NCBI RefSeq assembly: GCF_905237075.1
Contig: NW_026136706.1
Span: 24,783,935-24,847,934, forward strand
Origin: Dicentrarchus labrax
Lineage: Eukaryota
DNA length: 64,000 nt
Direction of reading: 5' to 3'
The translations under genes were made by a program, and so were the position numbers. This document shows, in pieces, positions 31,678-31,760 of the stretch; position 1 is the first letter of the stretch, and every line of letters starts with the position of its first letter. Below the pieces are notes generated by a model, which saw nothing but the letters and a program-made list of their open reading frames with translations, was not told where the DNA came from and made no database searches.

Positions 31678-31678
<1 letters not shown>

Positions 31679-31760
<82 letters not shown>
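31679..31760. repeat. (CA)~40 microsatellite; it reads (TG)n on the PARP4 strand and abuts the 3' splice site of exon 14
   Basis: Direct read. Confidence 0.95.

Follow-up and report, generated by a model that had tools for sequence, protein, structure and literature searches.

The window, by which we mean the whole 64,000-nt stretch of DNA that was analysed, carries a PARP4-like gene on its minus strand. Pfam searches of the translated exons detected BRCT_2 (3.8e-11), PARP (2.6e-14) and VIT (3.7e-15) domains, with BRCT in the N-terminal exons and the PARP catalytic domain and VIT spanning exons 12-15. BRCT, then the PARP catalytic domain, then VIT is the architecture of PARP4 (vault PARP), and the predicted domain order identifies the gene as PARP4, the name given to it by an earlier note on this DNA. 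Using tblastx against longer orthologous contigs, we placed at least 21 exons between 35050 and 22660; the Logan contig L001, from a related species, aligned in blocks at 33719-33528, ~33172-33021, 31681-31533, 31428-31283 and others. The ATG exon starts at 40501 and the BRCT exon at 40164, and because the ATG exon is preceded by an acceptor, at least one non-coding exon should lie upstream of it. Counting one such non-coding exon, then the ATG exon, the BRCT exon and so on, the exon that concerns us here is plausibly exon 14, and we number it so.

Alignment to orthologous loci places the upstream exon (exon 13) at 33029-33170 on the minus strand, with a length of 142 nt and the donor CAAG|GTGAGC. 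The intron delimited by the exon boundaries is 1351 nt long (31678-33028, GTGAGC...GTAG). Exon 14 (31535-31677), located by blastn and tblastx, the Pfam VIT match and translation, is in phase 1 and encodes GLGSEDNGVESIKNPLEDVTAGLLDSSGQQLPLQAVHVKCKLMDLLSQ, comprising a linker and the start of the VIT domain. The joined translation of exons 13 and 14 is open (...PSSDQ-G-LGSEDNGVESIKNPLEDVTAGLLDSSGQQLPLQAVHVKCKLMDLLSQ-VIIFQKY...), the frame of exon 13 being continued. Exon 14 is 143 nt long, the length that the earlier note had given.

The intron ends in a microsatellite. Read on the minus strand, the junction is ...agcatattct(TG)40T AG|GGCTCGGTTCGG, with GGCTCGGTTCGGAGGAC as the longer exon read, and TRF reports the repeat at 31680-31760 with period 2, 40.5 copies, 100% matches and a score of 162. 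The tract is a perfect (TG)40T, or (UG)40U in the pre-mRNA; TRF and the minus-strand reading agree on the position and sequence, (TG)40 TAG|GGCTCGG on the gene strand, from which the earlier note had started. A perfect dinucleotide array of 81 nt is a microsatellite and not a chance match. A single U stands between (UG)40 and the AG acceptor dinucleotide (31678-31679, minus strand, ..gtgtAG|GGCTCGG), which is assigned by frame continuity from exon 13 and by the orthologs. The final 81 intron nt before the AG are all repeat, half G and half U with A and C absent, and over the last 84 intron bases there is no A, no C and no pair of adjacent pyrimidines.

To place this site within its gene, we compared 19 exactly placed PARP4 acceptors, the TG-tract acceptor and 18 others, scoring composition over the 40 nt before the AG. 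The longest pyrimidine run is 1 at the TG-tract acceptor and 3-13 at the other 18; the C fraction is 0 against 0.07-0.40, the A fraction likewise 0 against 0.07-0.40, and the G fraction 0.50 against at most 0.28. Its AG-free zone of 91 nt is the longest of the 19, the others having zones of 18-89 nt. Among the acceptors of this gene, the proposal that a TG repeat replaces the polypyrimidine tract is therefore confirmed. A second PARP4 acceptor, ctgatGTGTGTGTTCAG|TTTCTT at 23598-23615 on the minus strand, also has a short GT run instead of a good tract, and its pyrimidine fraction of 0.42 is the lowest in the gene.

The assignment of the acceptor was checked against the AGs around it. If it were wrong, an acceptor with a normal tract would be used in its place, and a decoy-like acceptor, uuauuuuuuuaucAG, does lie 157 nt upstream (31835-31850, minus strand). 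We tested upstream AGs with any pyrimidine tract within ~450 nt, the two AGs that bound the AG-free zone, and those in the first 80 nt of the exon. With the decoy as acceptor, the 4th codon would be a stop. Of the upstream AGs, the last two (gaAGttAG, 31769-31774, minus strand), at 31774/31773 and 31770/31769, would add 95 or 91 nt and shift the frame, and the exonic AGs would remove 14, 31, 50 or 76 nt, with the frame lost in each case. None of the AGs tested near exon 14 provides an open-frame alternative, every one giving a frameshift or an early stop, whereas the assigned acceptor is homologous in all orthologs with the frame kept. The same doubt has a second form, in which the repeat length is an assembly artefact and the true repeat is much shorter, as long perfect repeats are hard to assemble from short reads. 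TRF finds several other long perfect AC/GT arrays within the 64-kb window, so that such arrays are normal for this genome. Mis-assignment or an artefact is, on these grounds, very improbable. A motif resembling a branch point, UUCAU, precedes the AG of the decoy by 23 nt.

The coding frame and orthology are the evidence from which we infer that the acceptor at 31678-31679 is used constitutively. We considered L001, the best protein match spanning two exons, as transcript evidence and rejected it, because this contig keeps its other introns and only the exon 14-15 intron is absent. In L001 and L002 (~1020-1050), exons 14 and 15 are fused (CTCTCTCAGGTCGTCGTCTTCCAG) with neighbouring introns present, which may reflect either loss of the intron in that lineage or a contig derived from partly spliced RNA. 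The matches of the protein search included no spliced sequence from the same species. Skipping of exon 14 would shift the frame, as the earlier note had stated, and in translation it gives a stop 15 codons into the following exon.

At its other end, exon 14 has the weak donor CAG|GUUCUC (31529-31534, minus strand; judged by consensus and ortholog comparison). By consensus GTTCTC is the weakest donor of the PARP4 gene; the orthologs mostly have GTGAAG, GTGAGA, GTGAAC or GTGATA at this position, and L006 has GTTGGG. Judged by its splice-site sequences, exon 14 is poorly defined on both sides in the window species, and this leaves room for inefficient or regulated inclusion.

The tract also constrains where the branch point can lie. 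No adenine stands closer to the acceptor than that at 31765, at a distance of 87 nt, the 86 intron bases leading up to the A of the AG holding none, so that an adenine branch point must be distant. The candidate adenines upstream of the repeat, listed by motif, fall at 31765-31800 on the minus strand. cuuGAAGuuAGcAuAu contains a cluster of A at 31765-31776, 87-98 nt from the acceptor, and the motifs UUCAC and UUCAU, which resemble the yUnAy consensus, lie 116 and 110 nt from it. UUCAC and UUCAU are followed by two AGs, 97 and 92 nt from the acceptor. By the logic that the first AG is taken, the A cluster is the most likely branch-point region and 31788-31800 a less likely one, because from sites higher up the intron the AGs at 31774 and 31770 would be reached before the acceptor. 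A branch point placed in this way, at least 87 nt from the AG, would be unusual. Gooding et al. reportedly described, in 2006, exons whose branch points are distant and whose AG-exclusion zones are long. The PARP4 intron resembles these in its 91-nt AG-free zone and would do so in its predicted distant branch point; it differs in that the zone of the classical cases is filled by a long pyrimidine tract and that of PARP4 by alternating U and G. Branchpoint-distant exons are also a subject of PMC9508853.

To see how old this arrangement might be, we collected the orthologous introns, whole or in part, of ten distinct loci, a sample biased toward TG-rich sequences because the loci were partly chosen by ORF prefix. 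In all 10 the position of the intron 3' end is homologous and the frame is carried on, with junctions such as cgtag|AGCTCGG in L001, gtgtgtag|AGCTCAG in L007 and gtatgtag|AAGTCAG in L004; in L003 the acceptor is shifted by 2 nt (gtgtgcag|CTCGGG) with a compensating indel. The complete orthologous introns are 151-640 nt long, against 1351 nt in the window. At the 3' end these introns are rich in T and G and contain little C (0-15% of the final 40 nt), and the acceptor is directly preceded by (TG)3-7 or by TG tracts with interruptions: tgtgtgtctgtgtgtgtgtgtgcag in L003, ttttgtgtgtatgtag in L004, gcatgtgtgcag in L005, ctgtgtgtttgtatgtgtgcag in L006, ggtgtgtgtgtag in L007, tgtgtgtgtgtggtgtttgtgtgttatgtttggtgtgtgtgtag for L007/8, gtgtgtgcgtgcgtgtgtgtgtgtgtgcgcgtgcag in L009, tgtgtgtgtgtgcgtttgcatgtgtgtgtgtag in L010, tgtgtgtgtgttgtgtttggtgtgtgtgtgtgtgtag in L011-13 and ctgtgtgtgtgactatag in L014. 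L001 is the only fetched ortholog with no TG run. L003 is the closest relative by exon-14 identity, and the donor of its upstream exon (~478-490) reads GAG|ATGAGC, with AT for GT, which may be a sequencing error, a non-canonical donor or the mark of a decaying copy.

A wider and less hand-picked survey used the ORF prefixes. A TG tract that is open in the frame of the exon reads CVCV, and CV/VC dipeptides occur just before the junction in 19 of the 26 orthologous ORF clusters with a long enough prefix; this survey too is biased toward TG-rich sequences, as TG runs hold no stop codons. None of the sampled lineages other than that of the window has a tract near 40 copies. Taken together, these sequences indicate that a TG-rich acceptor with no pyrimidine tract is ancestral at the exon 13-14 junction and that the tract in the window is an in-place expansion of it. 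Because the tract is large and perfect, the expansion is probably recent in the window species. The earlier note had presented the tract as a singular oddity, a description that does not hold, since TG-rich, C-poor acceptors occur in the orthologs and GT repeats at teleost 3' splice sites are documented (PMC4691745).

By rough arithmetic (six AC/GT arrays, ~20 acceptors, ~3 permitted offsets, one strand of two, 64 kb), the probability that random placement would set one array against an acceptor in the UG orientation is ~0.003. A TG-rich seed already present at the same acceptor in relatives accounts for the placement.

Other repeats were noted in the window. Within the 3' part of PARP4, TRF reports a 43-nt tandem repeat (24953-25134, 4.2 copies, 97% identity) and a 78-nt, GGA/GAG-rich repeat (21387-21604, 2.6 copies). 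Upstream of the gene, two near-identical segments of ~75 codons, …DICSSSDTGWVPNAVKFAQIIQVPTQFLFVVQLFIQRRAAWLCGCAVN…RAVHEENCTFCLL, lie 2.3 kb apart in minus-strand frames (44762-45007 and 42469-42693) and are likely to be two copies of a transposable element or of a dispersed repeat. The interval 43407-43931 is open in all three minus-strand frames, the longest of 175 codons, L/S/R-rich and of low complexity, which points either to a repeat or to coding sequence of biased composition, perhaps on the plus strand.

GT repeats at 3' splice sites form a recognised pattern in fish. In zebrafish, GT-repeat frequency peaks directly upstream of 3' splice sites (Lin et al. 2016, Genome Res 26:12, PMC4691745), and GT repeats abutting fish 3' splice sites had been noted earlier by Yeo et al. 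2004, as cited in that paper. AC repeats and GT repeats are found together across the introns that Lin et al. call (AC)m-(GT)n and form a bridging hairpin; 61% of these introns have no pyrimidine tract, their splicing is independent of U2AF2, and they are found in 10% of zebrafish genes at about equal frequency among constitutive and alternative introns (PMC4691745). A minigene chimera, CON-GT, in which the GT 3' end has no AC partner, was spliced inaccurately with use of a cryptic acceptor (PMC4691745). Class membership called for an AC hexamer no more than 40 nt from the 5' splice site (200 nt in the co-occurrence analysis), robust bridging in simulation needed 6 repeats, and the introns of the class were about one third more stable than dinucleotide-preserving shuffles (PMC4691745).

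The 3' end of the PARP4 intron has the features of a fish GT-repeat 3' splice site, and the compactness of the gene, the many AC/GT arrays and the pattern of relatives agree with a fish host. Its pyrimidine tract is weak or absent, and a sense-strand TG repeat lies directly upstream of an acceptor supported by frame and orthology; a GT-repeat hexamer is present within 40 nt of the 3' splice site, with (TG)40T stopping 2 nt short of the intron end. As in other fish GT-repeat introns, the sense-strand GT/TG directly upstream of the AG obscures the branch point and the pyrimidine tract, and as in the class of Lin et al., the genome is rich in AC/GT microsatellites and the repeat length is not conserved between species. 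PARP4 lies at the long end, with 40 copies in a 1351-nt intron compared with >14 repeats in a 170-nt intron for the exemplar of Lin et al., and its TG-rich seed is conserved across orthologs whereas their instances are individually poorly conserved.

We asked whether this could be a true (AC)m-(GT)n bridged intron, in which the UG tract would pair with AC near the 5' splice site, join the two splice sites and replace U2AF2. The sole AC run in the intron is ACACACCACAU (32946-32956, minus strand), 72 nt from the 5' splice site. In the minimum free energy (MFE) fold of exon 13, the intron and exon 14, the last 12 nt of the tract pair with it at intron positions 73-83 in an 11-bp helix, and ~8.5 of the expected tract pairs fall in the bin that contains it. 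The controls do not bear this helix out, and we rejected ACACACCACAU as a bridging partner. The first 40 nt of the intron hold no AC-repeat hexamer; the single one is the ACACAC at +72 (m = 3, inside 200 nt). The duplex of the tract with the first 200 intron nt has an energy of -37.0 kcal/mol, compared with -32.1±7.7 for dinucleotide shuffles, and is matched by 24% of shuffles and by 39% of natural 200-nt pieces of the window. Mutating the AC run costs 6 kcal/mol of -368. In the closest relative, L003, the run is not kept, the aligned position being TTACATCTTATTG, and no ortholog intron that was fetched has an AC run near the 5' splice site. Nor did we find excess stability of the intron, which folds at -367.7 kcal/mol against -355.8±7.2 for shuffles (z = -1.65), a difference of ~3% where the class shows about one third. 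A bridged intron is accordingly quite improbable here. The PARP4 intron is a GT-only case and falls outside the bridged (AC)m-(GT)n class, from which it differs in having no AC repeat near the 5' splice site, no bridging helix above chance and no marked excess stability.

A longer AC array was also considered as a partner and rejected. Read on the gene strand, positions 42839-42760 form a perfect (AC)40, which is followed after 1.7 kb by an imperfect (GT)~35 at 41090-41021. The two arrays precede the ATG exon, whose first base is 40501; they lie in intron 1 or the 5' flank and adjoin no mapped splice site. The (AC)40 is outside the repeat-ending intron, whose upstream exon is at 33170-33029; it lies ~2.3 kb upstream of the ATG exon and 11 kb from the tract, nearer to the (GT)~35 at 41.0 kb, which also counts against the bridged intron. 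If transcribed, for example within intron 1, the pair could form a long hairpin. The order AC...GT...GT resembles the 'Dscam-like' layouts that Lin et al. examined and found to have no effect (PMC4691745), and there is no reason to link the pair to exon 14.

The folding model assigns most of the tract to a nearer partner. About 70% of the tract is paired in the thermodynamic model, and by pair probabilities ~39 of the 57 expected tract pairs go to intron positions 1009-1108, where an ACAU/AC-rich stretch (..aauacauacauccuguaauuaacacaacauacauaaauacauaaaaac.., 31953-32019, minus strand) is the predicted partner through A-U, G-C and G-U pairs. The tract could thus be sequestered in a local hairpin with a stretch ~200 nt upstream, which would hide it from UG-binding repressors and set the AG at the base of the helix. 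The duplex of the tract with the upstream intron reaches -58.9, against -45.5±5.1 for shuffles, of which 1.3% do as well, and z is -2.15 when the tract is kept and only the upstream part is shuffled. The result is marginal, since 9% of natural 1.27-kb pieces of the window pair equally well. Such an A-U/G-U helix would moreover put the branch-point zone and the AG at opposite ends and would not shorten the distance between them. The stretch is not common to the orthologous introns, which are much shorter; only L007 and L011-13 have ACACACAC nearby. We regard this local hairpin as improbable.

The earlier note had proposed that the tract is a high-affinity TDP-43 site and that polymorphism in its length could tune PARP4 dosage. 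Extended to other UG-binding repressors, the proposal is that they block the acceptor and cause partial skipping of exon 14 and decay of the mRNA, so that length polymorphism sets the amount of PARP4. The affinity of TDP-43 climbs with the number of UG units, from a Kd of 14 nM for (UG)6 to 2.8 nM for (UG)8 (PMC2665213), and TDP-43 inhibits CFTR exon 9 and APOA2 exon 3 via UG/GU repeats at their acceptors (PMC2665213, PMC1524908). By length, then, the tract qualifies as a potential high-affinity site: 6-8 UG units suffice for nanomolar binding in vitro (PMC2665213), and beside this 3' splice site, where at least 6 would be looked for, there are 40. Skipping would give a premature stop, the donor of exon 14 is weak, and a perfect repeat of 40 units is expected to be polymorphic at the slippage rates of fish (~1.5e-4, with large steps; PMC4691745).

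The comparison with CFTR that accompanied this proposal is apt in part. In CFTR, too, a UG repeat lies near the 3' splice site, there of polymorphic length, and the (TG)m(T)n of intron 8 controls skipping of exon 9 through TDP-43, longer repeats giving more TDP-43 binding and more skipping, according to Buratti et al. (2001, 2004) as represented in PMC2665213 and PMC1524908. The layouts differ, in that CFTR has 9-13 repeats and keeps U5-9 between repeat and AG, whereas PARP4 has (UG)40 and one U; skipping of CFTR exon 9 is in frame, and that of PARP4 exon 14 would shift the frame. In sequence the PARP4 site is closer to the intron 2 acceptor of the human gene APOA2, (GT)16GGGCAG, than to CFTR (UG)m(U)n. 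As in PARP4, a GU repeat, here of 16 units against 40, takes the place of the pyrimidine tract right beside a coding exon's acceptor. According to the papers that cite Shelley and Baralle 1987 and Mercado et al. 2005, among them PMC4691745 for the acceptor, APOA2 exon 3 is still included, with enhancers offsetting the inhibitory TDP-43 that binds the tract. Both the binding and the enhancer dependence are known for this mammalian gene.

Inclusion of APOA2 exon 3 despite (GT)16 therefore counts against repression as the outcome at PARP4, and so do several properties of the locus. TG-rich acceptors are old and widespread at this junction, and exon 14 is conserved coding sequence. With TG-rich acceptors in the orthologs, the exon would long have been spliced with no classical tract, which weakens the idea of regulated skipping. 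Zebrafish AC-GT introns are no commoner among alternative than among constitutive introns (PMC4691745), and the ~70% of the tract that is paired in the thermodynamic model would compete with single-strand binders. Since TG-rich acceptors are old here and common in teleosts, we consider repression by TDP-43 or other UG-binding proteins unlikely; TDP-43 control and dosage tuning of PARP4 are conjecture.

The reading that we prefer, with a probability of about 60%, holds that slippage expanded an ancestral TG-rich acceptor and that the expansion is tolerated, with a distant branch point spliced to the first AG after a UG spacer. In ancestors of the fish group, the intron would already have ended in a short TG-rich element, and slippage would have brought it to 40 perfect copies, making the site an instance of teleost GT-repeat 3' splice sites, here with no AC partner. 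The branch point would lie upstream of the repeat, in the A cluster 87-98 nt from the acceptor, and the second splicing step would take the first AG beyond the AG-free UG tract. The tract itself, 50% of it U, would be a tolerated spacer and not a selected regulatory device, and would depend on U2AF2 weakly or not at all, in line with what is reported of GT-repeat introns in fish. Exon 14 would normally be included, as the frame of the gene and the VIT domain depend on it. The repeat is probably polymorphic in length, and because of its weak donor exon 14 is likely to be more sensitive than average to UG-binding proteins. By analogy with the mis-splicing of CON-GT in the minigenes of Lin et al., the GT-only (TG)40 acceptor might be inefficient, and the weak donor GTTCTC together with the decoy 157 nt upstream leaves room for substantial mis-splicing or regulated skipping.

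The only unusual aspect of the site is that a long GT-only acceptor with no AC partner belongs to an exon with a weak donor; otherwise it is real and fairly ordinary. It is distinctly unlikely, in our estimate, that such an acceptor, with 81 nt of pure (UG)n, no AC partner or pyrimidine tract, a branch point at least 87 nt away and a weak donor, is used both constitutively and accurately. If it were, fish would here recognise a 3' splice site in a mode that dispenses both with U2AF2 and a pyrimidine tract and with the hairpin bridge described by Lin et al.; the site might, for example, be recognised with the positive help of a UG-binding protein, and repeat length would be a natural splicing QTL for PARP4. 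The orthologous series, from (TG)3 up to the (TG)40 of the window, all at the same acceptor, forms a ready allelic ladder for minigenes. Neither an efficient nor an inefficient acceptor would amount to a major change, as GT-repeat acceptors are common in teleosts and the effects of UG repeats on mammalian splicing are well documented. An efficient acceptor would provide a natural test case for a fish 3' splice site with neither a pyrimidine tract nor a compensating AC-GT hairpin, a point left open by Lin et al., whose GT-only chimera was mis-spliced (PMC4691745). An inefficient one would mean that repeat length modulates PARP4 output through nonsense-mediated decay.
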